A stretch of 64,000 nt of DNA from assembly GCA_963514005.1 (NCBI GenBank), contig OY740805.1:31496001-31560000 (forward strand). Direction: 5' to 3'. Source of the stretch: Raja brachyura (Eukaryota). Positions 313-60,877 of this stretch are shown in pieces (position 1 is the first letter of the stretch; every line of letters starts with the position of its first letter). The position numbers and the translations under genes are program-made. The notes beneath the pieces are model-generated. The model did not search any database. It worked only from the letters and a program-made list of their open reading frames with translations, and was not told the origin of the DNA.

Positions 313-510
313 GATCCTACTACTCGAAGGCGTTGTTTGGCAAATGTATTTCTCGTATATTGTAGGAACCTACTCCCTTCACTTGGAGCTAACAGTTATG
401 TATTTAATGACTTTATTTCAATTAATTTTATAATGCATTACATAGCTCCAACATTGAAGACAAAATTGCAAAATAAACGGTTCTTCAACAGAGTTTACTC
501 TTTCTTTCAG

Positions 511-546
511 AATTAGAGCACATAAAAGAAGAGCTTGAGAAAACAG
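511..546 (+). CDS. Gene A micro-exon, 36 nt (ELEHIKEELEKT)
   Basis: tttctttcag|...|gtgaga. Confidence 0.88.
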
Positions 547-3500
547 GTGAGAATAGACTGCGACGTTTTGGTGCCTTTGATTAATGCCTATCGAAAACAA
601 ATCGTTGGCAAAATACATGCTACAAAAACAGTCCCTATGTTGTCAATTAATAATTGTAGTTCTGGAAAGAATTGACTCCGCAAGAAGCGCTTCAGTTAAA
701 CGATCAAGACTTCTAATGCATCCTCGCTTTGCACTCATACTGCAGTGCTGATTATATGCGTAAAGCAACTGCTGATTTTAGTTTGCGCTGGGTTTGTCAT
801 TAAAAGGGTAAAGCATGTTAGCGTCTGCAAATTACGACAATGCGTTTACTATTTGTGTTAAATCTATTCTGTGTTTATAGCTCATAAATTGAAGAAGAAT
901 GATGCAGGTACGAAAGAATCAGAGAGTGGCGAAAATATTCTTCATGATTTGAGTATGGTAGCATTTATCTGCACGTTCATTGCTTTCAATAATCATTGTT
1001 CGACAATAATTGTGGCTTAATTATCTTTAGAAATTGCAGAACATCTGAAAAACGATGGTGAGTAAAAATAATCAGTTATACGAAAAAGAAAACATATTTG
1101 GAAGTGGCAGTCAGCATAAGTAGAGGGAGAGAGGAGGCCTCTGGTTATGAAACTTCGCAGAGTTCATTTTTTTTTAAACCACCAGACCTACTAACTGGCG
1201 TTCGCATACCTACGTACCACCACGGTTAGAAGAGTACTTCACTTATTTATCACTGGTGGTATCAAAACTACTTGAAGGTCGTGATATGAAAGCAGCCCGG
1301 AGAGACGGGTACGCTGGCACAGCAACAATTCCAGCATTGCCATTAAACCCGCCAACAATGGAGGTGTCGCTGTAGTCTGGTACGCTGACCTGAGTCTGAA
1401 AAACGATGCCGAATTTAAACGTCATCATTGTTCTGCATTGTACATCATGTCCCACTGAGATCCTGCAGCATTTTTTTTCTTTCCATTCGTTCCTTCCCGT
1501 TTCCGCTTTCTACAAAAATAAAGTATTGATTAGTATTATAGTCAGTCTGATTCTCGCAGTCACAACAAAGCACAAGGCAACGTGCGAATCTATTTGGTTT
1601 CCCAAGGGACACATTCTACACAATGACTTTTATAACTATTTTACTTGCAAGCTAACGTAAGAGGTCTTGGAATCTCATAATCAAGAATAACCGTTTCCTA
1701 AGGTTAAACTGTTATAGTTCTAAACATTGTCGTTTATATTAACATAAAAATCTGCAGGGTGTTCATGAGAAGCAGCGATTTGGCTAAACTTCGTGCTATT
1801 TTCTGTTTTTTTTGCTTTCGAGTTTTATATCATTTCATTTTTATTTTTCAGAAATACGTTTAAAAGAATCGAAATCAGGTTAGTGCATCCGAGTAACATT
1901 TACGATCTGAGAATCGAGTTTTTCCCTACTAAATTCAGTGACATAATTTCGGTCCTTTTTCCGAAGGGCGCTTGATACTATATATTTTGTTCACTATCGT
2001 CGAGGACAATTTTTTGGGCAATGGAAATATACAGAAATACATTTTGCGTGCATGCGCGCACACATTCATATTACCTCGCACGGTGAAGTAAATATGGAAT
2101 TAAAAGTGCATTTAAATTGTGCGCAAAATGAGGGGCGTTTTTTAAGTAAATGATTGACTTAGGGCAAATTTGGCCTTGTAATGCTCTGCGAAAAATTGGT
2201 GACAGATGTATTAACGGTAACTGGGTGATGCTCTGACACGGTTTGTAACTTTGGAGAGTGGGAACTCTGTGCGACGTTGTACGAACAGAGATAATTGCAA
2301 AATATGTTTCGCTTGGATGCTGTGTGTGGCTACGTGAGACAACTTTAAGTGTTGAATAAGTATGGAGAGATGAAAAGATATTTACTTTCTAATTTCAGAA
2401 TTAGACAAATTGGAAATCATTCGCAAGGACGTCGGTAAGCAGCGAAACCTGCTTTCGTTTGAAAATGCACGTGGATTAAGTACCCAAATCTCTAAACAAA
2501 ATAAAGCATGTTCTGCTTATCTCGAACGATGTGCTCCACTCGGTACACAAAATTCGCTAAATGCTTCTGGCTCTGTCATATGAAAGACCAAACAACCATG
2601 CTGAACCAGTGGTGCTTTGCTTGTCACATATTCAACTGCTCAGTGAAAATATTTGTACATAAATAACTTATTCTGGCGCCGCCATTTTAGGCGCAATTTT
2701 TCGATGTCCGTTTCCCTGCGCACGCGATGTACTGGGGCAGTTCCCCGAACCGACAGCCCTCTCCACCCCAGCGAAATGTTTGTCCCGGGGGCGCCTTCTG
2801 CAGCCGTCCTTAAAGGCGCTGGATGCAATAATCCGGTTCACCCTTCTACCGACCCTTGCTCCTCGGGTCCCGCAGGCCTTCCAGTGATTCCCGCCGAACG
2901 AGGAGCCTTAGAGCGGGCCCCGAAGAGCCTTAGCGCGGGCCCCGAAGAGCCTTCGAGCGAGGTCTCGCCGGACGACGAGCCTTCCGGCGAAGACCCCGCC
3001 CCGCCAAAAGTAATGCGTGAGATTAACGGAGAACGGAACACCAAAATAACAGTGCAGTTTCGAAAGTTGCACCTTCGCGATAGAATCCAAAGCCTATTAT
3101 ATTATTTCCAAAATACCTCTGCAGCAACATCTGTACAGCCCACCATATTAAAGCTGCTTTCCTGCTACTGCACCGTTTTACTTTTCTATCACACACACGA
3201 GTTTGCAAAACACAAACGTCCACTTGCACACTCGCGCGCACGCACATCGATCATATTGCTAAGTTCTCCATGTCACTGGACTTTTAAAGATCTGGTCGCT
3301 TTGCATTTCATTGCTCATCCCGTAGTGATATCGTAGGTGACGTTTTAAATTTTTTGAAAGTATTTTTAAATTCCTTAAAACGGTACCATGAGAATTGACA
3401 TTATTATTCGAAGGCATGCATTCCATATAATCAGAAGGTATTGCAATACATGGGATGGTACGGAAGGTTATTCTGCATGTAATTAACCAGGACTACTTTG

Positions 3501-6500
3501 CAGCAGACGTAGCGTCAATTATGTCCTGTGATTAATCGTGTGAAGCTGAATGGAACGTTAAACCATTCAATATGTCATTAATTTAATAACAGTATATGAC
3601 TAATTTGCACGTATGGCACGTAATCTTATATTCTATTTTGATTTTCAGAGGCATTGGTTAAGCAAAAGGATGAAGGTAAAGCATTTCCTGATTTTTCTGC
3701 GTCCCTTTTGATATTGCCGTTACAAAATACCTATGATAAACAGGTGGCAGTAAAACCAGTATATCATTGACCATAATGTCCAGGTAGCGTGAGTACATGA
3801 TGAATATTGAAACTTATGCTCTTCAAGCAAATACAGTTTCCGTAAAACACTGGTTAACACTTACCTTTCACTACAAAACTATACCACGCCGCTATTTGAA
3901 ATTAACATACTTGCAAGCTGAAGTTGTAACGACACAGCTTGTTTAATCGTGAGGTGATAGCTAAAACACGACGATTAATGAGCCACAATCAAGCATGAAT
4001 AGTAGCCAAGTTATATCCCATTTGGATTGACGGGCAGAAATAATCAAGTAGCACGTACATTTGTATCTATCTTCCTATTGCACGCAATACGTATTATTTG
4101 AGACTAACAATCAGGTGACATTAGGCCGAGGTTACTGCGGTTACACCTAAACACGAAAATGCAGGAAGTAACTGATGTCCCTGGTGCAAGGAATTTGGAG
4201 GTACTCAGCAATTTCTAACTTTGAAATGTGCCTTTGTGTTACAGAACTTGAAAGGCTACGAAATATTATTAGTAAGTCATGGCATCTGGCATTTAATGAT
4301 CAGGTTGCGTGCAGGCGTTGTATTGAAATTCACCATGAATTTATCAAGAATGATGTTCGGCTAACCCTCCGATATATTTCACACGGAAACGCTCATGTAT
4401 AGCAGAAACCGGCAAGGATAATTTAACTGAACACGAGACGGGATTTTGGCTGCGTAGTCTGTGACAGGTCGATTAAGGTGATTAATTTAATTCATTTATG
4501 TTATAGTTTCGTGCTTCATTTTCCCTTTTCCTATATATATATATTGACATTGTAAAAATTATGTAACGGGACGACAGGGAAACAACATCACACTTGGAAC
4601 ATAATTTAGACATAAAGTGTGAAGACTGGTAAACACGCCGAAGTATGTTATAATTGGTGAGAGATTGGGTAATTTGGAAATTGAATATGACCTGGTTTTC
4701 GTGTACAAATCATTCAATGCCTTGTATCGTTATGTAATTATGCACCCATGCAGAACAGACTGACTTCATCCATTTCACCACCAACGTCCATCCGGAACTG
4801 AAATTCACCTGGACCATTTCCGACATCTCCTTACCCTTTCTAGACGTCACTATCTCCTTCGCAGGTGACAGACTACTGACCGACATATACTGCAAACCCA
4901 CTGACTTCCATTGCAATCTGGACCACACATCTTCCCACCCTGCTTCTCTAAGAACTCTATCCCCTACTACCAATTGCTCCGTCTGCACCGCATGTGCACC
5001 CAGGATGAGGTGTTCCAAACCAGGGCATCGGAGATATTCTCATTCTTGAGCGAACGACGGTTCGCCTCTTCGACTATAGATGAGGCTGTCACCAGGGTCT
5101 CCTCTATATCCCGCAGCTCACTCTCACTCCCCATTCCCCCACTCATAACAAGGACAGAGTCCGCCTTGTCCTCACCTTCCACCCCATCAGCCGTCACATA
5201 CAACGGATAATCCTCAGACATGTTCGCCACCTCCAACAGGATCCCACCACTGGCCACATCTTCACATTTCCTCCTATTGCGGATTTCCGCAGAGACCGCT
5301 CCCTCCGTAACTCCCTGGTCAATTCGGCCCTTCCCACCCAAACCACTCCTCCCCCCCCCCCCCCCCGGTACTTTCCCTTGCAACCACAGCAAACGCTATA
5401 CTTGTCTCTTTACCTCCCCTCTCGACTCCATGCAAGGACCCAATCAGTCTTTCCAGGTGAGTCAGAGGTTCACCTACACCCCCTCCAATCTCATCTATTG
5501 CATCCGTTGCTCTAGGTGTCAACTGCTCTACATCGGTGAGACCACGTCCGGTCTTGGCGATTGCTTCGCCCAACACCTCCGCTCGGATCGCATTAACCAA
5601 CCTTAGCTCCCGGTGGCCCAGCACTTCAAATCACCCTCCCATTCCGAATCCTACCTTTCTGTCCTGAGCCTCCTCCATGGCCAGAGTGAGCCCATCGCAA
5701 ATTGGAGGAGCAACACCTCATACTTCGCATGGGCAGTTTACACCCCAGCGGTATTAACATTGACCTCAAATTTTAGATAGTCCTTGCTTTCTCCCTCCCT
5801 CCCTTCCCATTCCCCTCTCGTTCTCAGCTCTCCCAGGGCCTACTGTCTCCGCCTCTTTGTTTCATCCCCCCACCCACACCCCCACCCCCACATCAGTCTG
5901 AAGAAGGGTATCGAGCCGAAACGTCACTATTCCTTCGCTCCACAGATACTGGCTCACCCGCTGAGTTTCTCCAGCCTTTCTGTCCACCTAGGATGACAAT
6001 TAATATTCTGGCCTTGATGATGGTAGGATTTCAGCACGAAACTAAATGTATCTTTAATGGGGCAATGGTAAGACTACGATGGTTATAATGTGGATATATT
6101 TGCCCTCCCTACCAAATATGGAAAAACCTTTCCTGCAGGGGTTTACAGATTCGTCCAAATTCCTTTATCCCGATTTGCTGGAATGAGATGTCAATTCAAA
6201 TATATTACGGGGATGGATAGGCTTGATGGAAGATTAATGATTCCCATGAGGAAAGTGTCATAACCAACCATCTATGTCATTGGAAAGGGGTTTGTATCTT
6301 TGACGGAGATTAGAAGGAAAGTCTTATAGGGCAGTGAAACATTGGATTTAACTATCGCGGAGAAATCTAGCAATAACTGTGTAAAACTGAAAACAGCGTT
6401 ACCCCGTTTATACGTATGTCACAGGTACACAAAGGTAAACAGATAATATAAAAATGAACTTTAAAAGTATTTATTCGCCCGATAAACGTACAGAACTGCA

Positions 6501-6710
6501 AGGACTGGTTTGCGCTTGGAGGTTAGGATCTTAAATTAAAGGTTAATAATTACATGAGAAGCATCTTGAATTAATAGTTTGGGCACTGTAGAAATATTAA
6601 GAATTATAAACGATTATACAAGTTATTTCTCGAAGAGCATATATTTCTCATCGACGTTTACAACTCCCATGTCTTTGCCCCAACAGAGGATCGGGAAAAA
6701 ACGAATGCAG
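511..6710 (+). CDS. Gene A (3' part): micro-exon coiled-coil protein, 8 exons
   Basis: Exons 511-546, 881-907, 1031-1057, 1852-1878, 2399-2434, 3649-3675, 4245-4271, 6687-6710, all AG/GT and phase 1. Spliced: ELEHIKEELEKT-AHKLKKNDA-EIAEHLKND-EIRLKESKS-ELDKLEIIRKDV-EALVKQKDE-ELERLRNII-KDREKTNA. First residue assumes an upstream G. Terminal exon uncertain. Confidence 0.85.
881..907 (+). CDS. Gene A micro-exon, 27 nt (AHKLKKNDA)
   Basis: gtgtttatag|...|gtacga. Confidence 0.8.
1031..1057 (+). CDS. Gene A micro-exon, 27 nt (EIAEHLKND)
   Basis: ttatctttag|...|gtgagt. Confidence 0.85.
1335..1510 (+). mobile_element. Penelope-like element fragment, degenerate
   Basis: IKPANNGGVAVVW resembles the PLE RT motif IKPADKGGAVVVW. 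Confidence 0.5.
1852..1878 (+). CDS. Gene A micro-exon, 27 nt (EIRLKESKS)
   Basis: ttatttttcag|...|gttagt. Confidence 0.85.
2399..2434 (+). CDS. Gene A micro-exon, 36 nt (ELDKLEIIRKDV)
   Basis: ttctaatttcag|...|gtaagc. Confidence 0.88.
3649..3675 (+). CDS. Gene A micro-exon, 27 nt (EALVKQKDE)
   Basis: ttttgattttcag|...|gtaaag. Confidence 0.85.
4245..4271 (+). CDS. Gene A micro-exon, 27 nt (ELERLRNII)
   Basis: ctttgtgttacag|...|gtaagt. Confidence 0.85.
4740..5990 (+). mobile_element. Penelope-like retroelement 3' part (RT C-terminus, GIY-YIG endonuclease, pLTR tail), frameshifted
   Basis: HPELKFTW..LPFLDV; SNLIYCIRCSRCQLLYIGET (GIY-YIG); tail ctgaagaagggt..cgaaacgtc. Confidence 0.88.
6687..6710 (+). 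CDS. Gene A micro-exon, 24 nt (KDREKTNA)
   Basis: tctttgccccaacag|...|gtgaaa. Confidence 0.72.
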
Positions 6711-6769
6711 GTGAAATGTTTTATTTTATGGTTACATTATATATATTTTTTACCTGCTATTGAATCACA

Positions 6770-7237
6770 AACTGTTCCATGCAAGAACGCAAGAAATCTC
6801 AGTTGTGGACGCAGTCCACGCCTCCCTTCCATTAACTCCATCTGTACATCTCGCTGCCTCGGCAAGGCCAGCAGCAAAATCACGTATCAGTTTCACCATG
6901 CTCAATCCGACTTTCCAGCTCTACCATCAGCCAAGAGATACAGAAGTTCTAGAACGCATACCTCCAGATTCAGGACATTTCTTTTGAGCTGTTAGTGGGC
7001 AATTGAAAAGTCACTTGATCAGATAGTATACGGTCCAGACCTCGCACCTACTTCTTTGGAGACCCTGGAAAGTTTTTCAATCGGCTAAATGTTATATCTT
7101 CCGCTAATTAATGTACCCTCTATCCTTTACTTGTGCTCTGTGCACAGATTATATTCATGCATCGTGTTTTCTTTGAAAGTATGGCACGCAAAACAAACCT
7201 ATATGTTGTAACTCGGTACACGGGTTAATAATAAACT
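6770..7237 (+). mobile_element. Rex/Babar-like LINE 3' fragment
   Basis: LPSINSICTSRCLGKASSKI..LPSAKRYRSSRTHTSRFR, typical of the ORF2 C-terminus. Confidence 0.7.
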
Positions 7238-7428
7238 AAGGTAGACGAAAATGCTGGAGAAAATCAGCGGGTGTGGCAGCATCCATGGAGCGAAGGAAAT
7301 AGGCAACGTTTCGGGTGGAAACGATACTTCAGTATGAAGAAGGGTTTCGACCCGAAACGTTGCCTATTTCCCTCGCTCCATAGATGCTGCCTCACCCGCT
7401 GAGTTTCTCCAGCATTTTTGTCTACCTT
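7238..7428. mobile_element. Palindromic element made of two inverted Penelope-type terminal repeats
   Basis: aaggtagacgaaaatgctggaga...cttcag versus gaagaaggg...tctccagcatttttgtctacctt; about 95-nt arms, near-complementary. Confidence 0.8.
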
Positions 7429-7819
7429 CGATTTTGCAGCATCTGCAGTTCCTGCTTAAGCAATAGTAAACTAAATCGTTGTCCGATTTTATACATGGAC
7501 AGAGGGGGGAAATTGAGAATCCCACAGATTCACTATATTGTACGAGAGGTATTTTATTTGCACTTCACGTTTAACTTAGCTGTGATTTGACATATAACCA
7601 TGTCTATGTCGTTCGAGGATATATCATTTGTAGAAACGCGTTGGCATCTGTCATGTTGTGCTCCAATTATCACAAATACCTTTCAAGAAGGATTTAATTT
7701 ACCTAATCGTTCATTGCTTTCTGAGGCTTTGCTAGATAGCTCTCGTTTTCCACGTACTTGGGACGAAAACCGTGACTGCAGCCGAGGGACGAAAACCGTG
7801 ACTTCATCCGTGACTTTAA

Positions 7820-8835
7820 CATTGCCTTTTCTAACTTCACGTGTCCCTTGCTTCCCCTCTCCCTCCGTAGCTCTCCCTTCCCAGATCTCCGACCACTTAC
7901 TGTCTCCGACTACATTTTACCAAGTACAACGAGATCTGAGGGGCCCTTGTTCATCCGTCAATGAAAGTAAGCTTGCAGGTGCAGCTGGCAATGAAGAGAG
8001 CGAATGGCATGTTGCCCTTCATAACAAGTGGCGTTGAGTACAGGAGAAAAGTGGTCCTTCCGGAGTTGTATGGGGCCCTAGTGAGACCCAACCTGAAGAA
8101 TTGTGTGGAGATGTAGTCCCCTAATTTGAGGGAGGACAGCGCAGGTTTGCAAGGTTAATTCCCGGGATGGCGGGACTGTCTTATGCTGAGAGAATGGAGC
8201 GGCTGGGTTTGTACACGCTGGAGTTTAGAAGGATAATTGATTATTAAGGGTTTGGGCACGCTGGAGGCAGGAAACATGTTCCCGATGTTGGGGGAGTCCA
8301 GAACCATGGGGGAACAGTTTAAGAATAAGGGGTAAGCCATTTAGAACGGCGGCGAGAAATACCTCTACACACAGAGAGTTGAGAGTTTGTGGAATTATCT
8401 GCCTCAGAGGGCGGTGGAGGCCGGTTCACTAGATACTTTCAAAAGAGAGCTAGATAGGGCTCTTAAAGTTAGCGGAATCATGGGATATGGGGAGAAGGCA
8501 GGACCAGCCATGATCACGTTGAATGGCGGTGCTACCTCGAAGGCCCGAATGGCCTACACCTGCACCTATTTTCTATTGTCTATTGTCTATTTCCTATTGT
8601 TTATATCCCTGTTTGTTTTGCTGTTACCTTATTCCAGCTAATAATGCCCCGTTTTCACACCGTACACTTTCGTATCTATATATCTCCCTCTCCCCTGACA
8701 TAATTCTGAAGAAGGGTCTCGACCCGAAATTCTCACTCATTCCTTCTCCACAGAGACGCTTATATCCCTCTGAGTTACTCTAACATTATGTTTCTATATT
8801 CGGTGTAAACCAGCATCTGCAGTTTCTTCCTACAG
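7820..8835 (+). mobile_element. Penelope-type 3' tail interrupted by a CR1 3' fragment (about 7921-8600)
   Basis: CR1 motif WNYLPQRAVEAGSLDTFKRELD and (ctattgt)n tail; flanks match the PLE tail seen at 34745-35340. Confidence 0.75.
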
Positions 8836-11800
8836 GCTGCATCCGGGTCGGTCAAGAATGGCCAGTGTAACAAAATGGATGGATAGTGTAAACTGTAGGC
8901 TGGTTCGGTAAGATTTGGTTCAAAGGAGAAGGAAACGAAAAACACATGCTCCAATTTCACATTGTCATGTTCTGCCAAGTCGTTTCAAACGATTTTATTT
9001 TCAAAAATTGTGAAATCAAAATTAGCCATTGTCTGCTGCCTAATTTTACTTATTTTTAATTGCAGGTCGCGGGTAATCATATTGTCCTTTACGCGACAGC
9101 AGTATCGGAGCTCAAGAGAAAACAGTCTGTTTTCTTCAACTGGATGTATTTGCTTTATTTAAAATATGCTCGTAACACAATTTTATTATATACATTTTGG
9201 CATTACAGTATAAGTACCGCTTTCCATTATTAAAACAATCTGTAAAGCTGTGCATCTGTTCATCTTTTTCCAAGTGCTTTTGAACGGCACACAGAATCGT
9301 GTTTTAGAAAACAGCTTTACGAGGAAACATGCTCTGTGTGTTAAGTGGAAGGTGAAATTGTCACTGGATAGTGAAACAATGTTGTTTTTGTCAGAGAAAG
9401 GTTAGATGCCTAAAATAAGAAGCGGATTTTTGTTATTGATATCAACGAATCTTCCAGCTAGAGAGTGTAGAATAACTATTGAATTTTAGGCTGGATATGA
9501 TATTAAAGTTTCATCATCTTGTACTTTCTTATTTGAACCAGAATGTGACCGTAAAAATCTGGATGTTTGCGAACCGTGCATTACACATATTGTTCGGTTA
9601 AATAGATATTGATTTGCCTTGGATATGTGGGGCTCGTTCGAAGTGTTACCAATGCAGCTTTATAGCAGTATCACCGAATTGTTCCCATTTTCTATATTAG
9701 GCATAAGAACATGATAACAAAAACACTTTTTTTGGTAAAGAAAGACCAATATTGGAAACATTTTCTTCGAAATTAAGCGGCGGGCTGGGAAAGTGAAGAG
9801 TGTGTAGGGGGAGATTGAGTTCACTTCATCATAAGATAACGAACTCTCACATACTCTGAAAAGGGAACACCGTTTTTGAAATGCACACTGCATTTCTCTC
9901 TACGATAATGCTGCCCCACGTGTCCATTGTATTTTCAGTATTTCTCCACATGTTCAGCAATGTCATTCCATACCAGAGTTTCTTATAGCGTGTATCTATA
10001 GTTAAGAACTAGAAACGTTCTGTGCATCTTAGATTATTTTTGAATTCCTTTAAAGTAATTCAAATCAGTTAAATTCGGAAACTTACCTCTACTTCAGATG
10101 GACCTTTTAGATTAACTTTCCTCAAACGACGAAACACGGCATTCCATCATGCGAATCATTAACCACAAATGGGTAAAATTCGAACTAGTTAGATGTAGAT
10201 CTGAACTGAATAAACCGCCATCAAATCCGCCTCGTCACCATTCCCTTCTATAATTACAGGAAGCCACCAAAACGACATAATTGATTGTGGACTATTTATA
10301 AAGATGTTTGATTAATTCCTGAGTGGAGGCTGGGAGTACATCATACAGCATTTTAGTTCACATGTACGATTATCTGTTTAGCTACAACATAAATAAACCT
10401 TAAATTTATGCTCAAGTCGTTATATCCTTCTCAAATAATATAATTGTTTTCATGACGTAAGATCCATGCAGCCGCTTATCGTTGCAAATGCACGGTTTAA
10501 TGCTACTGTATTCATTTACTTCGCTATATATATGTGTGTTTACTTAATGACACTATTAATATTTCACTTCATATGTTATTCGGCTGGTTTGGATATTAAT
10601 AAAAATCATAACACGAATTGCATGCCTTTTACTAATTGACAAGAAGTCACGTAATGGAATCATTTCAGTGACGTTAGTGGAATATGAAAAATTATAGCAG
10701 TGGCAGACATGTATACGTACACTCTATTTACCAGCGGAATGGGGGCCTGGGATTTGCTTGTCTAGTCGAATATCCGCCGTTTTACCTTACATGTTACATA
10801 TGTCGGGCAGATATATTCCAGTGGTTATAATTTCTTCGAAGATAGCTGAAGATTCCTAGAGGCGATGTTCAGCTTATTTTAGAACATGAGTTTCTATATG
10901 ATATCGCTATCCACGGAAATGCGTAACCCCTTCGCCAATCCCTGAAGAATTTCGGAGTTTATACACTTCACAGCATTACAAATTTATACAACCATACAGT
11001 GAATGAATAATACACCAAGCTCTTCAAGACCGAATTAAGAAGAAAACACACAAACGTATCACAGCAATGCAGTATCTCCATTAGCCCATTTTTAATTCGA
11101 GCATCTTTGAAAATTCCACCACAGGCGTTCGGCTGTTTACATTAAATAGTGATATTCCAGAGGTCTCACCATTTGCACATGCAAAGTACACATATTAGCA
11201 CATATGGTCAAAAATGTTCCATGCGTTACACGCAACAGCCTAGGATAGAACAAGTTAAATATCTTATTGGACCATTCTGAACAGGTATAATATAATACAT
11301 TCTAACTAATTCGGTTGACCAATTCCGATTATTCCATGAATCACAATCACTTGGTCGCTTTCCGGTTCCGTGTAATAAATGGCGTATTTTTGACATGAAA
11401 TGTTAGAATTATTGTGATTAGACCTTCTCTGCAGGTGCTCTAATTACCATCCACTGGGGATGACGGTTGTTTGAAAACGTTATTTTTAAGAGCCCCGTGA
11501 TGTTTCGGCGCTACAATTGGTCCCATTTTCAGGATTTTTAAAATATATATGGAGCGTGGAATGTTTAAGAAGGAACTACAGATGTTGGTTTAAACCGAAG
11601 ATGGACACCAAATGCTGGAGTCAGATGAACAGGCAGCATGTCAGCTGTGAGAGCGGAAGATCAGATGGTGTGGGGAAGGAGTTTGAGAAAGCGAGTTCGG
11701 AGAGCTGAACGGATAATCGCTGTTGGACCGGGAGTAAGGGTCAACCACTTATCGGCAAGTTATAGCATGGTATGTTAAATTGGCAAATAACCTGATTAAT

Positions 11801-12578: not shown

Positions 12579-12804
12579 TCTATATACTATTAAAACTCTG
12601 TGTGTGTGTCTGTGTGTCTGCCGACAGGGTGTGTGGGTGTATGTCAGATTTGCCCTTTGATTTTATGGTTCGCCAAAATCACACTTTCAAACACCGAGAA
12701 ATTTTCCATTTTGCTAGACATTTCACTTTTATATTCACGGATTCACTCCTCATTACATTTAGACATGTTTATGTACACGTTTTTAAATCAAATCCTTCAC
12801 TCCC

Positions 12805-12860
<56 letters not shown>

Positions 12861-13290
12861 ACGCACACACACACACTAATTTTGTGGCCTCCTGCTGGCC
12901 AGCCACCACAACGGCAGCTGCTGCAGCCCGCTTTTCTCCAAAAACGCCGCCACTTTTATTCCCCGCGGCCGATTATCCCTGGCGATTCGGCTCCCGATTT
13001 CACTTCCTCCCGCCGGCCCGGCTCGGCTCCATCACGCTGGCTGAAGACAAAGATCTCCTCTTCCACCGCTGTTTTTCGTGCTCCTAAATACAGCGGGTGA
13101 ACAGTCGATCTTTGCCTTGAGCCAGAGGGAAGGCAGGGACAACTCATTCCACAGTGAGTTCAGTTCGCTAACATTGTAATTGTCAGATTTGATCCGATTA
13201 ATGTGATTGGGGAGGGAGGGGGCTGGTTGTGATTGCCGTGGAGTTCCATCCATGTTTCTTCCGGGGGAGAAAGCGATTCTTCACTAATTA
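12579..13290 (+). mobile_element. Unclassified, possibly non-autonomous Helitron-like element with internal poly-C
   Basis: Begins a|tctatatactattaaaac followed by a (TG)-rich tract, like Helitron-N 5' ends; no clear CTAG 3' end found. Confidence 0.35.
12806..12860. repeat. poly-C tract
   Basis: About 55 consecutive C. Confidence 0.95.
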
Positions 13291-13479
13291 GAACGGCTTC
13301 GACCAAGATCCACGAAAAAAAATAATTCTTAATGACACAGCCAGGTCACGGAAGGGAGAAGAAATATTCGATCTTATGTTCTTAACTTTGCTGGTGAAAA
13401 ATGTAGTAAATTCTTTACGCACTTAGCAGGGGACCCAGCAGAGGTAGGACATGTGATAGAGTGACGGTTCAAAACATGA

Positions 13480-14495
13480 CCTTGGAGTTATGAGCTTTTT
13501 TGGAAATAAGGGCGGAAAGGTATTTCATTCTTGCCGATTTTACTGCTACCTGGTAATGACTTCTTCCTGATAATGACTTTATCACCGCACGTGGATTGGA
13601 CTTACTACTTATCACAGAAACCTGGCTAAATCCTGGTGAGCTTGCTCCACTCGTGGAATTCTGTCCTGACACCTGTAAAGTTTTCAGCTCGCATAGGCTC
13701 TCCGATCGCGGTGTAGCCACTGTATTTAAGAATCATTTCAACAGCCTCCGCATGAACGCTGATCATTTCTCCATTTTGAACATAGTTGGTCTAATCTGTC
13801 CACTTTTAATTGTTCTTGTGTATCGCCCACCAAAAATGCATAAGGATTTATCTCACAATTTGCTGATCTTATCGCTAGCTTGTTGCACAAATTTGACCGA
13901 GTCCTGATTCTTGGTGACTTTAACATTCATGTCCCACAAAGCCTCTTGAGAGTGAATTTATGAACCTGGTTGAGTCATTTTATCTGACTCTACTCACCAC
14001 TGGACCAACGCGCAAGCTTGGCCATACACTAGACCTGGTGCTTTTCTCTGGTCTCCTATGTTTTAATACATAAATTATTTGTGCCTGTCTGTCTGATCAT
14101 AGTGCAATTATATTCGATGCATCTCTCCCGCTCTCTCCCTCAAAATCCCATCTCCCTGCTCGCTACTCCCGCTACGTATATTCTTCGACTGCCAGCAAGT
14201 TCTCTGAGGCTCTCATAGCCACCCGCGACATCTGCAGTATTGAGGCGTCTCCCCTCCATCTCAGCACTGACGATCTAATGTATTTATTCAACACCACTTG
14301 CTCTTCCATCTTGGATTCTGTTGCTCCTCTAAAAATGAAAACGCCTAGGCCTAAAGGCTGGCAGTGGCTCAATGACACCAACAGAACCCTAAGAAGAGAG
14401 TGCAGAAAATCAGAACGGAAGTACAAATCTGAGAAGCTTCAAATTTCCTTTGAACTTATGAAAAACAATATTCACAAATACCAACACACACGTGT
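13480..14495 (+). mobile_element. L2/CR1-clade LINE ORF2 AP-endonuclease fragment, frameshifted
   Basis: DLLLITETWL, LVYRPPK, ILGDFNIH, GPT..LGHTLDLV, LSDH motifs in order. Confidence 0.85.
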
Positions 14496-16374
14496 TTAAG
14501 GGAGAAAATTATTCGACGAATATGGGAACCGATGCGAAGCGTCTTTTGTCCATTCCTTCCACCGATGCTGCCCGGTACATTGAGTTCCTGCAGTATCTGC
14601 AGTTTCTTGCCAATCGCGCATTTTAGACGTGCTCGATAACGCAGTGAATGAAAGTGTGCCTACCCACGGAATAATAGCCAACGCGTATGTCTTCCTTACT
14701 TCGCAAGGCACGCAAGCGGGAATCGCGCTTTCACGCGAGAACAGTAAAATACTGCAATCAAGGCCACTGGGATTTCAAAATGCCTTGGAGATTTACAAGG
14801 GCAGAGAGAAAGTAGGAAAGGTTTCACTATAGGTCTTCGCGGGTTTCAGGAGGCACCTGGTTTGTACATTGGCAAAATAACTATTTCCCTTTCTTGGCTC
14901 AAAATAAAACAAGCGCATTGATTGGAGATAAAATCAGAGATTATCAAACTGAAGTACCTTGCCATGTTTACAAGTAACGGTGGCCTGAAGCGATACTGAA
15001 AGCGCGATACGGAGGAGAATTGCTGGAAACTTATTGTAATTATTGGCATACCATTAAAGGTGACATCGAAGGTTTAGTATAATGGTGGGGGAAGGGAATA
15101 AACATCTCGAGGTAATGTTGAGCGCAATTTATTTAATTTAGGCTACACGTTTTGCTGAATATAAAAGTGATTAGAACAAATATGACACATCGGTGATGTT
15201 TGAATCAATATATATTGATCGCAAATGCGATCTTGCTGTCTGGACGTGCTAAAGTGTGGCGAACAAAGGCTATGGTATGTTATTTGTGGCAAATCTAATG
15301 CAATGAGCACTGCATCTTTGTATACACAGACAGAAACCTGTGTAGAACGAAATGATGGCGGAAAACCGTTATCTACTTCTCTGTAGAATAGTCTTGGAGA
15401 AATAATATATCCGAAACAAAATTGCTTTGTGGTATCGTGTCAAGCATATTTAGCTGTTAAATATTTAAGATTTGATGCAGGATGGCGAATGCAAACGATT
15501 AAATTTGTGTATCTGCACCAAAATAGAAACGCATATTTTATTTTTCCATTCAGACAATCACCGAACCTGCCAAAACTCCAAATGTTGGATGGATGAACTG
15601 ATCAGTTGAACTGTCAGTTGAACTATCAACTGATAGTTAAATACACTGTGAGTGAATATAAATACGGGAGAAGATTAGGTAGATAGTCAGTTAATGTTAT
15701 TGAGCTTTCCCGTCGCTTTAACCTAACATATTTTTATGCGTAATGGGCTTTCAATATTTTATTGGAAGCATTTGTACAAAAAACTTGATAATTTTACAGC
15801 TTTGTGAAGAGCTTCAATTTTAACACTTTCCACAAGAACATTGAATTAAAAAAAGAGAGAAAGCATAAGAGAGAGAAAAGAGAAGAAAGAAGAGGGGAGA
15901 TATACCCGTCGATCCACCCATACGCCCGTTCACACAACTGTACGAGTAACTTCCAATTTGTGTTCAAATATTGTGTTGCTCGAGAAAATCAATAAAATGT
16001 GACCTTATTTTTTTTTTAATTGGTCCAGTTTATTATTCAAGATGAACCTAATTATCTGTAGATATAATGTGTCTTTTATTTCTGTAAACCACATCTTCAC
16101 TGGAGGAACTTCAGCATTTTACCAGAATTTAATTCTGTTTTTTTGCTGATATTAGTCCATCGCCCACAGCGTCGCTGAAAAGCAGTCAATTTACTATATG
16201 CCTCTGATATTCCCAGTATTATCAGTTTTGAGTCTGGCTCTAATGGGATTTTCAGTATGTTGGAGAGGACGCTGAATATTTCCGTCCAAAAACGTTCTAT
16301 TTTTGTACAGATTACAAAACTGTGGGTTAAAGTGGCTTCTTTGACCTAACACTTATGGTCACAGAAAAGGTCAC

Positions 16375-17100
16375 AGAACGGGGAATGTACAGGGACAGTG
16401 TAGAGGGAGTGCCCAGCTTTAAGTTTCTGGGCACACACATCTCAGAGGACCTCACATGGTCCACCAACACCGCTGCGCTGGTCAAAAAGGCACAGCAACG
16501 ACTTCCTAAGAACATTGAAACGGACTGGTCTGCCCCAACAGCTGCTGACGACCTTCTACCGCTGCACGACAGAGAGCATACTAACGTATGGAATCTCTGT
16601 GTGGTATCTCAGCTGCACGGAGGCGGAGAAGAGAGCTCTTCAGCGCGTCGTCCACAGAGCGCAAAATATTATTTTAGACACCGCTACCAGCCTTGTAGAG
16701 CATCTACCCCACACGGTGCCTCAGGAAGGCCGTCAGCATCCATAAAGACTCCTCTCACCCTTATAATCAACTGTTCGAACTACTACCTTCCGGCGGACGT
16801 TAAAAGGCCTTCTACGTCCGCACCTCCAGACTCAGGACAAGCTTCATTCCCAGAGCTATAGCGGCTCTCAACGGGCCCTGAGTGCCCCCCACCCCCATGG
16901 ACTGTCTCCCTCGGATGGTCACGTCGCACAAACACATCTGCACTTCAGTCTGTTTTGACGGTTTACTGTTCTAATTTCCTTTTTACAAACCTTGTTCTCG
17001 GGGTATTTAAACGTAAATGTTATTAGTCGTTTAACTTATGACATCGGATGGAAGTTGCAAACCAAATCTCGTTGCACTTATGTGTAATGACAATAAAATA
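16375..17100 (+). mobile_element. Rex/Babar-like LINE 3' fragment
   Basis: VPSFKFLGTHISEDLTWSTNTAALVKKAQQRL; FYRCTTESILTYGISVWY; ends tgacaataaa followed by a microsatellite tail. Confidence 0.88.

Positions 17101-17181
<81 letters not shown>
17101..17181. repeat. (TAT)n microsatellite, LINE tail
   Basis: Perfect trinucleotide run. Confidence 0.95.
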
Positions 17182-17236
17182 CGCAAAGAGGGGAAACACT
17201 GGTGAAAATGTTGTCCAGTTTCGTTTTATGATTGTA

Positions 17237-17512
17237 TTACCTGTTCAGCGCTTTGAACTGTATCAGGCAATGTCTGGCATTTAAGGAGCAAGTATGGACG
17301 TATTCTAAGCTTTCGTCCCATATATCTTTTGAGATTTGTTGACCCACCTCATATTCCCATGCACGCTTGTAAACATTAGATGATGGGGTGTTGATGTTTT
17401 GAAGAACATTGTATATGTGGGATATCAACTGCTCTGTTTCTGTACGTCTATGCAAACATTCATCGAGTTTATCTGGACTTGCAGTCTTGTAGTCGTGCAT
17501 GTATATTTTCAC
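17237..17512 (-). mobile_element. L1/Tx1-like ORF2 C-terminal fragment
   Basis: KRAWEYEVGQQISKDIW...SLNARHCLIQFK. Confidence 0.75.
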
Positions 17513-19229
17513 ATATACACATTTTATACGCCATGTAATATTTGTAATATACTGTAATGCGTAATATTTATATTAACTCTGATCAAACAAAACAATCATG
17601 CAGTTTCTTTAAATTTCATTTGTTAAACCGTTGTGTGCTATGCAAGTTACAAATTGTAAAATAATAGAAAAAATGTCAACATTTTTATACTTATGTAATT
17701 GTCAATGGAGCTAGCGTGACCGTGAACGCAATTGCACACAAGTGGACACATTCGGGATGTACTTCCTGGAATAAAATGTGCACTTGCAATATATTTTGCT
17801 ACATGTTAAACAACAATTGAGCTCCGCAAATGACAAACTCGAAAGGAATCTGCCTTTGTTTAATTTATATATTTCAGAATCGAATACTTCGTGTACTTCT
17901 GTAAACTTCAAAGACCTTTGGAGGACGGTAGGTACATATACGTAATTGGGGTGTACACGATGGAGAATGTAAGGGGACATTAAGACTGTTGTGTGTCTAA
18001 ATGTGAGAGAGGACCGTGCACATTTATATAGTCCAAACGTTCTCGTGTTGCTCGATTTGATAGTTTAAAATCGTCACCCGGCGTAAATATTCGTGGTTGG
18101 AACCAGCGTTTGCAATGACAATGGATTACACGACAGCTCACTGACATTAATGAAATGCAATTATCGTAATTCAGAGTTGCTCGACAGTGCATTTCGCCTT
18201 CTTTACCTAATTTGCATAAGACACTAACATTCGCTGCATTGTGGAATTTGGTGAAATCCCTTGCCCCGAGAGAAATGGCCGTGAGCGGAAATGCTTTGCG
18301 GCATTCCGCCTGTAACTGAACGCCAATGTAAACAAGAAATTAATATAGGAAACCAAATTCAAAGCATTTCAAATTTGCTTACATTGTATGAGAATTTAGC
18401 AATGAAAAGACGAATTTAAGTATAACTGGAACAATACAACATTTATACAATTCGTTGCTATTACGTCTGTCAATAATCAGACTTCCAGAATTGTAATAGT
18501 AATTATAATCAGCTTGCAGAGAGTTCAGTGCAATTAATATCTTCAAACATCTCGGGGAGCGGTTAATCTCCAATTGACACAGCCTCGTCGAAACAGCTCT
18601 CCGAAGTCCACTGTGATAAAAAAATAAGCATTAATATCAATACAGTTTGGATTTTTAGAATGTGCACGTCCATCCTCTCGTGAAAGCAAAATACAACAGT
18701 TGTTCGGCCAGTGATTATTTCAAGCATCGCCTTCAAAGGGTGATGTTGCCACTTACATAGTGCATGCCCCTCTGAAAGACAGGTTAGCGAGCAATATCGT
18801 TCCACGTTCAGTTATTTGTAACCAGCAGAAAGGAGAGACGTTTGCACATTATTCAAATGCAAACGTAGAATTATATTCAATTATAGAAAGTCAACGAGCA
18901 TTTCAAATGCGATAAGGAAATGTGCCGCTATTCTCTATTAAAGTTTACAATATATACTGGTAATTCACAAATATCTTCCAGATAAACAACAGTTTACACA
19001 TTGGTAATGCACACAAAAGCGCCTCACTCCACGGGTACTCGTTTTAATTCATGGTGTGAGACGAATTCCATTCTCTCACCTTTTTTTCCTCTCTCCACTG
19101 AAATACCATTTCTTTTGATTTTCCAATTTTAGTTTTATTCCATCGTGTTCTTAGAGTTTCATTCCCTCCTTAAACAACGTGGCGAAATGCGAGCAACCCG
19201 TGGAACATTGCCTCTATTCAAAAATATGC

Positions 19230-20160
19230 GTCATTCATTTGGATGAAAAACGACATGGCATGATTAGCACGTTTGCAGATGACACGGAATTGGGTAGTGT
19301 TGTAGATGGTGAAGGTGATTGGCACAATTTGCAGCAGGATCTTGAAAGTTTAGCGAGATGGTCTGAGGCATGGTTGATAGAATGTAATACAGAAATATTT
19401 AACATTTTGGGATGACTTGCATGACAGGACCGACACAACGAATGGTAGAGCTCAGGCGATTGTTATTGAGCATAGGGATACACTAGTGCAGGTACAGGAT
19501 GCGTTGAAAGTGGCATCACAGGAAGACTGGGTGGTCAAAAAGGCTTTTGGCACATTGGCCTTTATCCGTCAGGGTACTAAGTATAACAGTTGGGCGTTCA
19601 TTTTGTCATTATATGGGACGTTGGTGAGGTCGTATTCAGAGTGTGGTGTTCATAACTGGGATCCATGTTATAGGGAAGATGTTTGTCAAATTGGAAAGGG
19701 TGCAGAGAAGATGTACAAGGATGTTGCATGGGCTCGAAGGCCTGGGCTATTCAGAGGGGTTGAGCAGGCTTGGACTCACTTCCTTGGAGTGCAGGAGGAT
19801 AAGCGGCGATCTTATGGAAATCACGAGAAGCATAGATCGGGTACACGCAAAGGGCCTCTTCCCTAGCGTAGGGCAATCGTGAAACCATAGGTTTAAGGCG
19901 AGGGGAATATGAAATAGGAACCTATTTTCACAGAAAGGGTGATGGGAGTTGGGAACGAGTTGTCGGAGGAGATAATTGTTGCAGGTACAATCGCATGTTT
20001 AAGGAACATTTACAGTAGAAAGGTACAGGGATATGAGATGTTTAGAAATGTATGGGTTTAACTCAGCCAGATGGGACTAGTGTAGATGGGATATGATAGT
20101 CACTGTGGGCAACTTTGGCCGTAGGGCTTGATTCTACTGTGTATGACTCTGTGACACTAT
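19230..20160 (+). mobile_element. CR1-like LINE 3' fragment, degenerate
   Basis: ISTFADDTELG, LYGTLVRS, LERVQRR motifs. Confidence 0.85.
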
Positions 20161-20267
20161 AACAACAAATCTCTAGATTTAACGTCTTAAAATGAAAATC
20201 AGTGGATGAAATGTGTCAGCATTTCCACTTTGTTTTATTCTCCATTTGCAACAGACGGGAAGTGACC

Positions 20268-20349
20268 ATGAATGTTACTGTTCATCGTTTGATACATTTA
20301 CTACATTTCCTCCTGGTGTTCGCAACCATTTTACGTCAAAATGTTGCAA
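20268..20349 (+). CDS. Gene B first coding exon, signal-peptide-like ([27 protein letters not shown])
   Basis: Strong acceptor tgttttattctccatttgcaacag ending 20254; gaccATG with A at -3; hydrophobic core [15 protein letters not shown]; phase-1 donor gttcga at 20350 (alternative phase-1 donor gtatct at 20359). Both donors are weak. Confidence 0.6.
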
Positions 20350-23300
20350 GTTCGATTCGTATCTGATGAAGTATTGCAATGGAATTTCTGGGTTTACATA
20401 TATATGGAATTGCAGTTGTGAATATAACCACTGTTTTATCCATTGCTCGCGATTTACAAACGAAGTTCATTGGAGGAACGAGGTATACTTTTTTACTTTT
20501 CTCTTTATAATTCTTACTTCTGAAACAGACGTGGTAGCTTTTGCTGGTACAGATACGTTGAATTATGTAAATCGATGTATCTGTCCTGTACTTTTCTTAG
20601 CACAGCATAAGGACTGCTTTGCTCAATTTGTACCATCTCTGAGGTCTTGTTCTACTCACTGGGAGTACATCATTGCAAGCCAAGATCCGATTTAATTATT
20701 TCCTCATAATTGTACTTTGCATTTAAATTAGGAAACTATTATTAATATTACATTGGCACATTTCTCAAACAAATTTGGCGATTTGATGAAATACTAGCAA
20801 AATATAAACATAAAACTATTTTCACTTTGCACGATAGAGTAAGTGGTGTCGGTCGTTATTTTCCATTTAACCATACAACCATATGACAATTACAGCACGG
20901 AAACAGGCCTTCTCGGCCCTACCAGTCCGTGCGGATCATTTATTTTCCCTTAGTTCCATCTACCTGCACTCAGACCATACCCCTCCATCCCTTCCCGTCC
21001 ATATACCTATCCACTTTACTTTTAAATGTTAAAATCGATCCTGTCTCCACCACTTCTGCTGGAAGATCATTCCACACAGCCACCACTCATTGAGTAACGA
21101 AGTTCCCCCTCATGTTACTCCTAAACATATGTCCCTTAATTCTCATGTCATCCCCTCTTGTTTGAATCATCCCTACCCTCAATGGGAAAATGTTTTCCAC
21201 GTCAACCCTGTCTATCCGTTTCATCATTTTAAAGACCTCAATCAAGTCCCCCCTTAACCTTCTGCGCTCCAAAGAATAAAGGCCTAACTTCTTCAACCTT
21301 TCTCTGTAACTTAGCTGCTGGAACCCAGGCAACATTCTAGTAAATCTCCTCTGTACTCTCTGTATTTTGTTGACATGTTATGTTATTTATTAGCTGTTTT
21401 TCTCTTCATTGTTGTGTCGAGGATATATAATGTTTCAAACTAAAACAGCTAGCTGGAACAACAGGAATATAATTGTCACATAATCTTTGTTTTCAGCGCA
21501 TTGTTTAAAATGTTGCCCAAAAATGTATATTTCGCTGTGGGCCTACAAAAACCTACTGAATGAACATAATATGTTTCATCGCTTTTCAGTTCCATACTTG
21601 AAAAACGAGAAAAAAGGAAGAGAATCATAATATTTACATTGTAACGTAACAAATTACATTTTCATTTCTACAACAGCAATGGCAGCACCGTCTGATCAAT
21701 ATATCAAAACGGAACCAGAAGATGGCGATGAAAAGAAGAGAGATGACTTGCACATTGGACATGAACGAAAGTTCAAATCCTTTAACGCAAAAGGTAATTA
21801 GGTGTGGATGATTCACTGGTATTCGTTAAAATGTCGTACTATTTGTAGTGCAATCTTGTTTTGAAAAATCCGTTGCAATTTCTATCTTAAGATAGTTTTT
21901 GAATAACGTCCATAAATATTGCAAATAAAAATCAAATAGGGTTTATCAAAAAAACGCAGCAAAACAAATTGTAAAATATAATGTGGTCCAGATTTCATAG
22001 AATAATGTTTTGAGTTGCCCGAGTTTGCAATGACAATCTGAACAACATTCGAAAAGCCAGCGGCGGATCTCGCTACTGTTTATCTGAGAGAATAAAATCT
22101 ACCCCATGAATTAACGTCTATTTACATATAAACCAATAGAATATACTAATTATCAAGACCAACACACAACCACCTCTCCACAACCGCTTCCCCACTTCCC
22201 CATAACCACCTCTCAACTTTAACTATCCGATGTGTTTCCAATTTCAGGATTGCTTTATTTAACGTATACGATTCATCATGACAATTCATCAGTTTGCGAT
22301 ACTCATCCACCAAAAGAGAGCCCGAATATATCACGTGCAGTTATGCCCAATGCCGATACTATCCAAGGATTACCTCTGTCCAAAGTACTACCACTGTTTC
22401 GATGTCAATGCAGCTTCAATAGATCGAGGTGCATTGAAGTATTTTGTACAATATACAAAATAAGCATTTTTGGTGTATTGGCGAAGGATGAACTTCAGTG
22501 CGAGATAGTCAATTAAAGTAATTAATATTCACCACATCAGCGAATGGACGTCACGTTTATGTTACTAAACCTTTATTGATCACCAAATTTGTACGCTTAT
22601 ATCAGAAATTCGGAATCGAGAAGAGAATGTCTTCTTTAACGTAATCATAATTATCATAATCATAATAGTATTTTACTAGCCAAGTATGTTTGCAACATAC
22701 GAGGTATTTAATTTATCATACAGTATTACAAATAAAGAGCAACAAGACAGCCAAATACTTTTTTTAACATGAACATCCACCACAGTGACTCCTCCACGTT
22801 CCGCACCGTGATGGAAGGCAAAAAAAAGTTCAACCTTCTTCCCTTTTTGGGCTGTTAGGGCACTCGTACTTTCCATTGCCGGGGCGATCTTGGCTCCCGC
22901 AACCGGCGGTCGAGCCTTCCGCGTCGGCGCGATCACGCTCCCACATCAGGATGATCTCAGTTCCCCCGCGCCCCACGATCAGAACCCGGGGCCGGTCTAG
23001 TCGAACCTCCTGCGACTTTGAAACTTCTCGACATCAGCCTCTACCCGAGACGTCGATCTCCTCGATGTTGAAATCCGCAGGCCGCGGTTGGAGCGTCAAT
23101 CCCAGGCAAGGGGTTGTCGGCTCCGGTAGTACGTCAACGACCCCGAGGTGGGGCTCATAGTCAGTCTCGAGCACGGCCGCCAGTTCCATGATGTTAGGCC
23201 GCAGAGTGTCCGGAGACACGACCCAGAAAATAATCGTATATCCGGTAAGGTAAGAGATTGAACAATGTTTCCGCCGACCCCCTCTCCCACCTCCCAGGCA

Positions 23301-60791: not shown

Positions 60792-60877
<86 letters not shown>

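Follow-up and report, generated by a model that had tools for sequence, protein, structure and literature searches.

A probable tandem pair of same-strand genes built from a two-class heptad micro-exon module in the cartilaginous fish Raja brachyura

Tandem genes composed almost wholly of tiny symmetric exons are known from the tails of chicken BG proteins and from the micro-exon genes (MEGs) of schistosomes, and gene predictors often miss or fuse genes of this kind. Here we describe a locus of similar design in 64,000 nt of Raja brachyura DNA (assembly GCA_963514005.1, contig OY740805.1, positions 31,496,001 to 31,560,000, forward strand; hereafter the window), in which 38 plus-strand micro-exons, eight at 511-6710 (gene A) and 30 at 24318-63715 (gene B), probably belong to two related tandem genes. 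According to the available text of two reports, the heptad exons of chicken BG are mostly 21 nt long (a few are 18 or 24 nt), encode one heptad each and lie after the Ig-V and transmembrane exons (PMC5938342, PMC4046983). Schistosome MEGs are characterized, in the accessible sections of the sources, by very small symmetrical exons and a signal peptide, some lying in tandem clusters, and are described as restricted to platyhelminths (PMC4350168, PMC10526429); the accessible part of another report describes MEG 2.1 isoforms as disordered (PMC10399815).

The locus shares phase-1 heptad micro-exons with chicken BG, and two candidate 3' exons of gene A, at 9066 and 9209, fit by sequence alone the BG arrangement, in which the stop lies in the last exon or the one before it, as far as the available text of PMC5938342 describes it. 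However, none of the 38 exons is 21 nt long; instead, exons of 24, 27 and 36 nt form an alternating two-exon, three-heptad module. For gene B, no counterpart of the BG Ig-V exon was found by Pfam in 123 open reading frames (ORFs) of 6711-24317 or by pattern search for an Ig motif. Nor did a credible BG-type phase-1 transmembrane exon precede the rod of gene B, since exon 20255 has a phase-1 stop and a hydropathy mean of 1.71 and the stretch 23625-23693 has poor splice sites. The likeness to schistosome MEGs lies in the share of coding sequence held by symmetric micro-exons (882 of 1081 nt, or 82%, of the visible model of gene B; 38 of 38 symmetric), in introns of up to a few kb, in a candidate signal peptide (its exon has weak splice sites) and in the probable tandem arrangement, whereas the cartilaginous-fish host and the regular heptad rod set the locus apart. 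Searches with exon-sized queries found no sequence relationship to schistosome MEGs. The locus resembles both systems in architecture but appears to belong to neither family.

All 38 micro-exons are bounded by AG and GT, open in phase 1 and symmetric, and they measure only 24, 27 or 36 nt; in gene A the order is 36, 27, 27, 27, 36, 27, 27 and 24 nt. The phase-1 count owes something to selection, and phase 0 is open in 14 of the 38, with 29 stops. Two further open candidates, at 30277 and 42713, were judged uncertain and excluded from every count. Because the set was picked partly on frame and composition, a separate blind test used generic splice scores alone (lengths 12-60 nt, score at least 6, no frame or composition filter). 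Lengths of 24, 27 or 36 nt made up 7 of 9 splice-site pairs in 1-6710 (0.55 expected) and 22 of 29 in 24318-64000 (1.8 expected), compared with none of 3 in the gap 6711-20254 and none of 18 over the entire minus strand. At a laxer cut-off of 4 the counts were 7/10, 28/46, 0/5 and 5/46, respectively. Furthermore, an exon model trained on the exons of gene B alone and applied to 597 candidates in 1-24317 placed six exons of gene A in the top six ranks (scores 19.8-30.4). The two remaining exons of gene A, at 14.8 and 11.2, did not reach the highest score on the minus strand (14.9, from 1720 candidates), and the top candidate in the gap scored 10.1. The micro-exons are real and strand-specific.

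The initial annotation of this DNA had reported eight exons at 511-6710 followed by about 13.5 kb with no convincing micro-exon, and both observations are borne out by the bounds, phase and sizes of the exons and by the low scores within the gap. The two exon similarities that it had quoted also hold: exons 511 and 63031 are identical at 22 of 36 nt and 5 of 12 residues, and exons 3649 and 24704 at 18 of 27 nt and 4 of 9 residues, the latter tying as the best same-length pair. Two exon classes can be distinguished: X exons are 27 nt long, and H exons 36 nt, with shortened versions of 27 or 24 nt. They are listed below with the other features of the two genes.

511..546, plus strand: gene A micro-exon, 36 nt, class H; ELEHIKEELEKT, the first residue assuming an upstream G
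881..907, plus strand: gene A micro-exon, 27 nt, class X
1031..1057, plus strand: gene A micro-exon, 27 nt, short class H; an alternative acceptor at 1040 scores about equal
1852..1878, plus strand: gene A micro-exon, 27 nt, class X
2399..2434, plus strand: gene A micro-exon, 36 nt, class H
3649..3675, plus strand: gene A micro-exon, 27 nt, class X (EALVKQKDE)
4245..4271, plus strand: gene A micro-exon, 27 nt, short class H, weak donor
6687..6710, plus strand: final micro-exon of gene A, 24 nt
6711..20254: stretch of 13.5 kb lacking 24-, 27- or 36-nt micro-exons, with retroelement fragments
9066..9101, plus strand: putative penultimate or terminal exon of gene A
9209..9255 (end approximate), plus strand: putative last exon of gene A
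20255..20349, plus strand: candidate leader exon of gene B, with a weak phase-1 donor
21677..21793, plus strand: 117-nt symmetric phase-1 exon, charged, not coiled-coil
24318..24353, plus strand: gene B micro-exon, 36 nt, H
24704..24730, plus strand: gene B micro-exon, 27 nt, X (EAVLSEKEE)
28054..28089, plus strand: gene B micro-exon, 36 nt, H
28832..28858, plus strand: gene B micro-exon, 27 nt, X; the weakest, leave-one-out score 11.1
30277..30312, plus strand: uncertain 36-nt open exon, strong acceptor, non-helical peptide
31158..31193, plus strand: gene B micro-exon, 36 nt, H
32145..32171, plus strand: gene B micro-exon, 27 nt, X
32301..32749: assembly gap of 449 N between two X exons
33471..33497, plus strand: gene B micro-exon, 27 nt, X
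35774..35809, plus strand: gene B micro-exon, 36 nt, H
36144..36170, plus strand: gene B micro-exon, 27 nt, X
39096..39131, plus strand: gene B micro-exon, 36 nt, H
40947..40973, plus strand: gene B micro-exon, 27 nt, X, with the only Cys
41095..41130, plus strand: gene B micro-exon, 36 nt, H
41456..41482, plus strand: gene B micro-exon, 27 nt, X
42713..42748, plus strand: uncertain 36-nt open exon
45299..45322, plus strand: gene B micro-exon, 24 nt, ambiguous class
47029..47055, plus strand: gene B micro-exon, 27 nt, short H
48150..48176, plus strand: gene B micro-exon, 27 nt, X; second acceptor at 48147, 3 nt upstream
48971..48994, plus strand: gene B micro-exon, 24 nt, short H
50223..50249, plus strand: gene B micro-exon, 27 nt, X
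51233..51259, plus strand: gene B micro-exon, 27 nt, short H
52755..52781, plus strand: gene B micro-exon, 27 nt, X
55984..56019, plus strand: gene B micro-exon, 36 nt, H
56581..56607, plus strand: gene B micro-exon, 27 nt, X
56779..56802, plus strand: gene B micro-exon, 24 nt
57646..57672, plus strand: gene B micro-exon, 27 nt, X
57791..57817, plus strand: gene B micro-exon, 27 nt, short H
60511..60537, plus strand: gene B micro-exon, 27 nt, X
61320..61355, plus strand: gene B micro-exon, 36 nt, H
62328..62354, plus strand: gene B micro-exon, 27 nt, X
63031..63066, plus strand: gene B micro-exon, 36 nt, H
63689..63715, plus strand: gene B micro-exon, 27 nt, X, the last one visible

The two classes mostly alternate. 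Under an order-blind rule of class assignment, the class changed at 7 of 7 steps in gene A (reached by 524 of 20,000 permutations) and at 21 of 29 steps in gene B (249 of 20,000). A 36-nt H exon and a 27-nt X exon together encode 21 residues, or three heptads. Among the 11 such pairs, the 'a' positions are L, I, M, V or F in 29 of 33 cases. The 'd' positions differ from heptad to heptad: the first has hydrophobic residues, the second mainly small ones and the third mainly K, R or Q. By general coiled-coil principles, charge at 'd' suggests a coil of two strands that is fairly labile. Both genes show a hydrophobic period of 3.50 (reached by 2 of 500 shuffles for gene A and 3 of 500 for gene B), and the 333 micro-exon codons include no Pro and three Gly. 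Between 48971 and 63715, runs of 24, 27, 27 and 27 nt encode 35 residues; such a run sums to five heptads, so that each 36-nt exon starts in the same register. The visible rod of gene B comprises 294 residues, corresponding to ~44 nm.

In-register similarity between the exons of genes A and B, taken over 111 same-length pairs, gave z = 5.7 (0 of 2000 shuffles), and it followed class, with scores of 3.5 for H-H and 1.0 for X-X pairs versus -6.4 and -5.7 across classes. The heptad register alone could explain part of this similarity. Common descent of the module is very likely in view of the shared sizes, phase and alternation. Collinearity of the eight exons of gene A with a run of gene B exons was rejected (the best score was 31 over 23 windows, not distinct, and had no null), as was a higher-order six-exon repeat in gene B, where sizes recur but pair scores range from -5 to 6.

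Gene B probably extends beyond the end of the window. The 449-N stretch at 32301-32749, the sole N gap in the window, may conceal a 36-nt H exon, judging from the alternation of classes. The uncertain 36-nt phase-1 candidates at 30277-30312 and 42713-42748 fit the heptad pattern poorly and are possible alternative or decaying exons. A search of 45323-47028 for a missing X exon yielded nothing convincing (best candidate 7.1). An acceptor at 48419 (score 13.3) within an intron of gene B has no symmetric GT donor and might belong to a cryptic or alternative terminal exon.

The 13.5-kb gap between the two exon arrays is long compared with the 36 introns within them (median 897 nt, maximum 3816 nt), and a log-normal fit gives p = 0.004 for a single intron of this length. 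We presume that 6711-20254 holds the 3' end of gene A, intergenic DNA and the promoter of gene B. Acceptors 9209 and 9066 rank 1 and 3 among the 962 AG sites of 6711-24317. Exon 9066 has a CTAAT branch-like motif and, after three residues, a phase-1 stop (TAA at 9074-9076); a GT at 9102, picked by eye and unscored, would make it a 36-nt exon, and a donor after 9072, ranked 34 of 957, would make it a 7-nt phase-shifting exon (9066-9072). Exon 9209 reaches a phase-1 stop after one residue (TAA at 9211-9213) and contains ATTAAA at 9229-9234, followed by a T-rich tract. The distance from 6710 to 9066, 2355 nt, is an ordinary intron length, and places the site 2.4 kb past the last micro-exon of gene A. 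A strict filter for terminal-like exons found no match in the 39 kb of gene B introns, although it also passed 21677 when that exon was read as terminal; its chance rate was 0.017-0.03 sites per kb, or about 0.06-0.11 within 3.8 kb of 6710. The segment 9066-9234 is a candidate terminal exon and poly(A)-like end of gene A; the initial annotation had not noticed it, and it adds to the support for a boundary.

The candidate leader exon 20255-20349 of gene B consists of 13 nt followed by an ATG at 20268 (A at -3) and 27 codons. Its best 15-residue Kyte-Doolittle mean is 2.42 and its best 19-residue mean 1.71, values that would suit a signal peptide better than a membrane span. Entered in phase 1, the exon meets a TGA at 20263-20265; entered in phase 2, it is open. 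The phase-1 stop, the Kozak ATG and the hydrophobic leader were all part of the initial annotation; the stop, the ATG with A at -3 and a hydrophobic core were confirmed, while the open phase 2 and the weak splice sites are caveats that it had not given. On the plus strand, leader-like exons numbered one (20255) with a gene-trained filter and three with a generic filter, and the chance rate was 0.013-0.03 per kb. The leader exon lies 1327 nt (~1.3 kb) upstream of the unique head exon 21677, a normal intron distance. The donors at 20349 (leader), 51259 and 56019 share an unusual GTTCG form, which makes the weak leader donor slightly more credible. Over the same exon, a 161-codon Cys-rich stop-free frame runs in another phase (20210-20695); it had no match in Pfam or the ESM Atlas and is probably due to chance. 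A 146-aa phase-0 ORF over the leader had no Pfam match and no usable ESM Atlas match, and was therefore treated as chance.

The head exon, 21677-21793, has strong splice sites (its acceptor ranks 4 of 962 and its donor 6 of 957) and is the best symmetric open exon of 51-297 nt on the plus strand (score 21.1), with a minus-strand candidate at 38784 scoring higher (21.9). It has its own ATG at 21679, 2 nt into the exon and with G at +4. Strong acceptors lie about 90 nt apart at 21497, 21590 and 21677, and only the last gives an open symmetric exon to the donor at 21793. A phmmer search of 1.84 billion representatives with the head exon returned two matches, P0001 (E = 1.8e-14) and P0002. P0001, a 40-aa ORF, is identical to the head exon at 32 of 40 residues (80%) in an ungapped alignment that includes two residues past the donor; the head exon is thus present in a related sequence, though this is not evidence of selection. 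P0002 (E = 2.4e-4; 39% identity over a low-complexity stretch) was not used. Prohormone cleavage at the KKR of the head exon was considered and rejected, since KKR is not conserved in P0001. A type II membrane form of gene B using a hydrophobic exon at 23625-23693 was also rejected, given splice scores of -1.3 and -4.7.

We point out that the protein queries were exon-sized, the longest contiguous coding piece being 39 residues, so negative results of the homology searches are weak. With such queries no full-length homologue was found, and the only match was the 40-aa one to exon 21677. Against longer proteins, the head exon gave one candidate and an alignment of eleven 36-nt exons gave 3154, none with E of 10 or below; the latter is a weak negative, the eleven-exon profile having retained 45 columns that were mostly intron-encoded flank of its first row. 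The Protein Data Bank (PDB) held no match for the head exon or the exon alignment, and in the ESM Atlas the head exon met only bacterial hypothetical proteins scoring below 0.9. Pfam applied to all 123 of 123 plus-strand ORFs of at least 38 aa in 6711-24317 returned only retroelement-associated or weak matches and no globular domain. A resemblance of the head exon to the N-terminus of human tetherin was dropped because no PDB match was found and no membrane helix follows. Literature searches, whose coverage left subscription journals mostly outside, found no paper on the locus or on a 36+27-nt module. Automatic gene models for this region may already exist in RefSeq.

The explanation we favour is that the locus holds two related genes in tandem on the same strand, which is probable from the sequence features described above. 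In this explanation, gene A, with its 5' part outside the window, would end its coiled coil at 6710, reach its stop in a short final exon (9066 and/or 9209), and use ATTAAA at 9229 as poly(A) signal. Gene B would have a promoter within the gap and then a non-coding first exon, from which the transcript would run through the leader 20255-20349 and a 39-aa charged head exon to at least 30 micro-exons encoding a rod of at least 294 aa, ~44 nm. Both genes would be built from one duplicated two-exon module. Gain, loss or skipping of H and X pairs would alter the length of the rod while keeping frame and register, because all exons are phase 1-1 and a pair makes exactly three heptads. The product would likely be a secreted structural or spacer rod, adjustable in three-heptad steps. 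The complete version, two tandem genes with gene B secreted by way of the 20255 leader, has about an even chance of being right, and its secretion part is weaker than its two-gene part. The exon set, its phase, the heptad period and the shared module are established; the gene boundary, the splicing of exon 20255, secretion, a dimeric rather than higher coil and the mechanism of length variation are what we infer.

The initial annotation had claimed two tandem paralogues. The shared module speaks for their relatedness, and the gap, the candidate 3' end at 9066-9234, the leader-like exon and the 117-nt exon together favour two transcription units, while several results weigh against a boundary. 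Each boundary signal by itself is no more than suggestive (p about 0.05-0.12) and was judged by criteria set post hoc. Similarity between A and B is no lower than that within B (206-2185 of 3000 permutations); since gene A cannot be separated from gene B in this way, the similarity reflects the shared exon module and not a gene boundary. Self-matches by blastn between A and B fall only on repeat copies, with none on exons or their flanks, by which a recent segmental duplication was rejected; the exon module itself is old. The gap is less exceptional when any of 37 introns may be the long one (p = 0.10-0.12). Two sites on the minus strand and 16 in 960 kb of Markov sequence pass the terminal-like filter; for the gene-trained leader filter the corresponding numbers are two and, in 768 kb, 10. 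Neither a promoter nor a first exon of gene B was identified. The frame is also open from 6710 through 21677 to 24318, for 410 aa over A, 21677 and B and for 371 aa when 21677 is skipped. These open frames, the gap probability, the inseparable sequences of A and B and the H/X alternation, which carries on from 6687 (X) to 24318 (H), would all suit one long gene, in which 6711-21676 would be one intron of 15 kb and the 117-nt exon would act as a hinge joining two rods. We consider this unlikely, as it needs a coincidence of two top-ranked acceptors with stops and ATTAAA, a leader-like exon, a Met right at the start of the 117-nt exon and an outlier gap. A locus with alternative ends is improbable. 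It would produce A-only, B-only and read-through forms, the last passing through the 7-nt exon 9066-9072, whose phase shift would bring 20255 into frame as a hydrophobic anchor between the rods. The read-through frame is open for 444 aa and the 9072 donor ranks 34 of 957, but chance alone would make one third of donors compatible in phase. Moreover, a membrane span would call for a longer hydrophobic segment than this one, which has a best 19-residue mean of 1.71 and two His within its core, and an 11-kb intron would be required in addition to the 7-nt exon.

The nature of gene B is a separate question from the boundary. The leader acceptor ranks 74 of 962 and is weaker than 32 of the 38 true acceptors, its donor (CAA/GTTCGA) ranks 123 of 957 and is weaker than 36 of the 38 true donors, and a search of the leader ORF against proteins of similar length gave no candidates; all three tell against a secreted product. 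Two tandem genes with a cytosolic gene B, starting at ATG 21679 like a soluble BG 'zipper' tail and with 20255 a chance or rarely included exon, are an unlikely alternative, rated only slightly above one long gene. This ATG lies near the start of a strongly bounded exon, would gain a purine at -3 whenever the preceding exon ends in G or A, and opens a stretch whose first eight residues are unchanged in P0001; moreover, the 294 micro-exon residues contain no N-glycosylation sequon compared with 1.7 expected, a difference that is not significant. However, an in-frame phase-1 leader-like exon stands 1327 nt upstream, for which the chance is roughly 0.05-0.11, and the start of P0001 at that Met is probably due to the gene caller. 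It is very improbable that the window shows the 3' half of a BG/butyrophilin- or lectin-type membrane gene whose transmembrane exon would be 20255 or a different one. Heptad micro-exons in phase 1, together with a stop in the final exon or the one before it, would match BG architecture as given in the available text of PMC5938342, but no Ig, lectin, B30.2 or C1q match was found by Pfam in the 123 ORFs, nor an Ig motif. In addition, exon 20255 has its phase-1 stop, the in-frame alternative acceptor at 20263 scores -6.2, and the hydrophobic stretch 23625-23693 has the low splice scores given above.

Other clusters of small-exon or coiled-coil genes also invite comparison. The tetherin/PLVAP/TM-CC cluster consists of tandem coiled-coil genes, the stalk repeats of CD23 comprise 21 aa per 63 nt, and SCPP genes typically have a leader exon in which a little 5' UTR sequence precedes the ATG. 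The locus differs from the tetherin/TM-CC type in having no supported N-terminal transmembrane exon before the coil, and from CD23-type lectins in that Pfam found no C-type lectin domain after the last micro-exon of gene A. With SCPP genes it shares small exons in a tandem cluster, a signal peptide (here a candidate) and D/E-rich sequence, as set out in the available part of PMC9122587, where coding introns of elasmobranch scpp genes are mostly phase 0 and SxE and Tyr motifs are reported. In contrast, the introns here are all phase 1 and the chain is a heptad coil rather than Tyr- or SxE-rich; the 360-aa model of gene B has one SxE, no PDYxxP and two Tyr.

The window has a GC content of ~40%. 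Its CpG observed/expected ratio is 0.64-1.01 across all sixteen 4-kb bins, which is high for vertebrate non-island DNA and may mark a germline-hypomethylated region. Its retroelement fragments include a Pfam RVT_1 match (26243-27089) and two weak ones, to GIY-YIG (5211-5603) and to an endonuclease (13844), and the repeats look similar to those of skate genomes. An Rfam scan of the window gave no matches, and a sigma-70 promoter scan, irrelevant for vertebrate DNA, gave output at chance level. Inverted repeats at 7238-7428 (a 191-nt self-complementary element) and 51920-52209 (85-nt arms, 87% identity) are probably mobile elements. A 59-nt poly-C run at 12802-12860 and a (TAT)27 repeat at 17101-17181 lie inside the 6711-20254 gap, and a (CA)41 repeat lies at 60793-60874. 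On the minus strand, a 98-codon ORF at 38507-38803, behind the acceptor 38784 (score 17.8) of the top-scoring minus-strand exon candidates, had no Pfam match; it might be what remains of a transposon, or else an antisense exon.

A two-exon heptad module of 36+27 nt that comes with no Ig, transmembrane or globular domain had no match in the literature or in the exon-sized protein searches. By analogy, and tentatively, the locus might be a vertebrate counterpart of the flatworm MEGs, that is, a tandem family of cartilaginous fish encoding secreted, splicing-tunable rods that act as molecular rulers; this extension is possible but unlikely as a whole. Skipping or duplicating 36+27-nt pairs would then set rod length in three-heptad steps, and compensating pairs of 17 and 18 residues (24+27 and 27+27 nt, five heptads together) would restore the register. 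If the locus is one gene, it would still be an unusual micro-exon gene, and the claim of a cluster would fall. If two genes with a secreted gene B are present, they would represent an unannotated, lineage-specific family of rod proteins, and would show how coiled-coil register constrains exon duplication.

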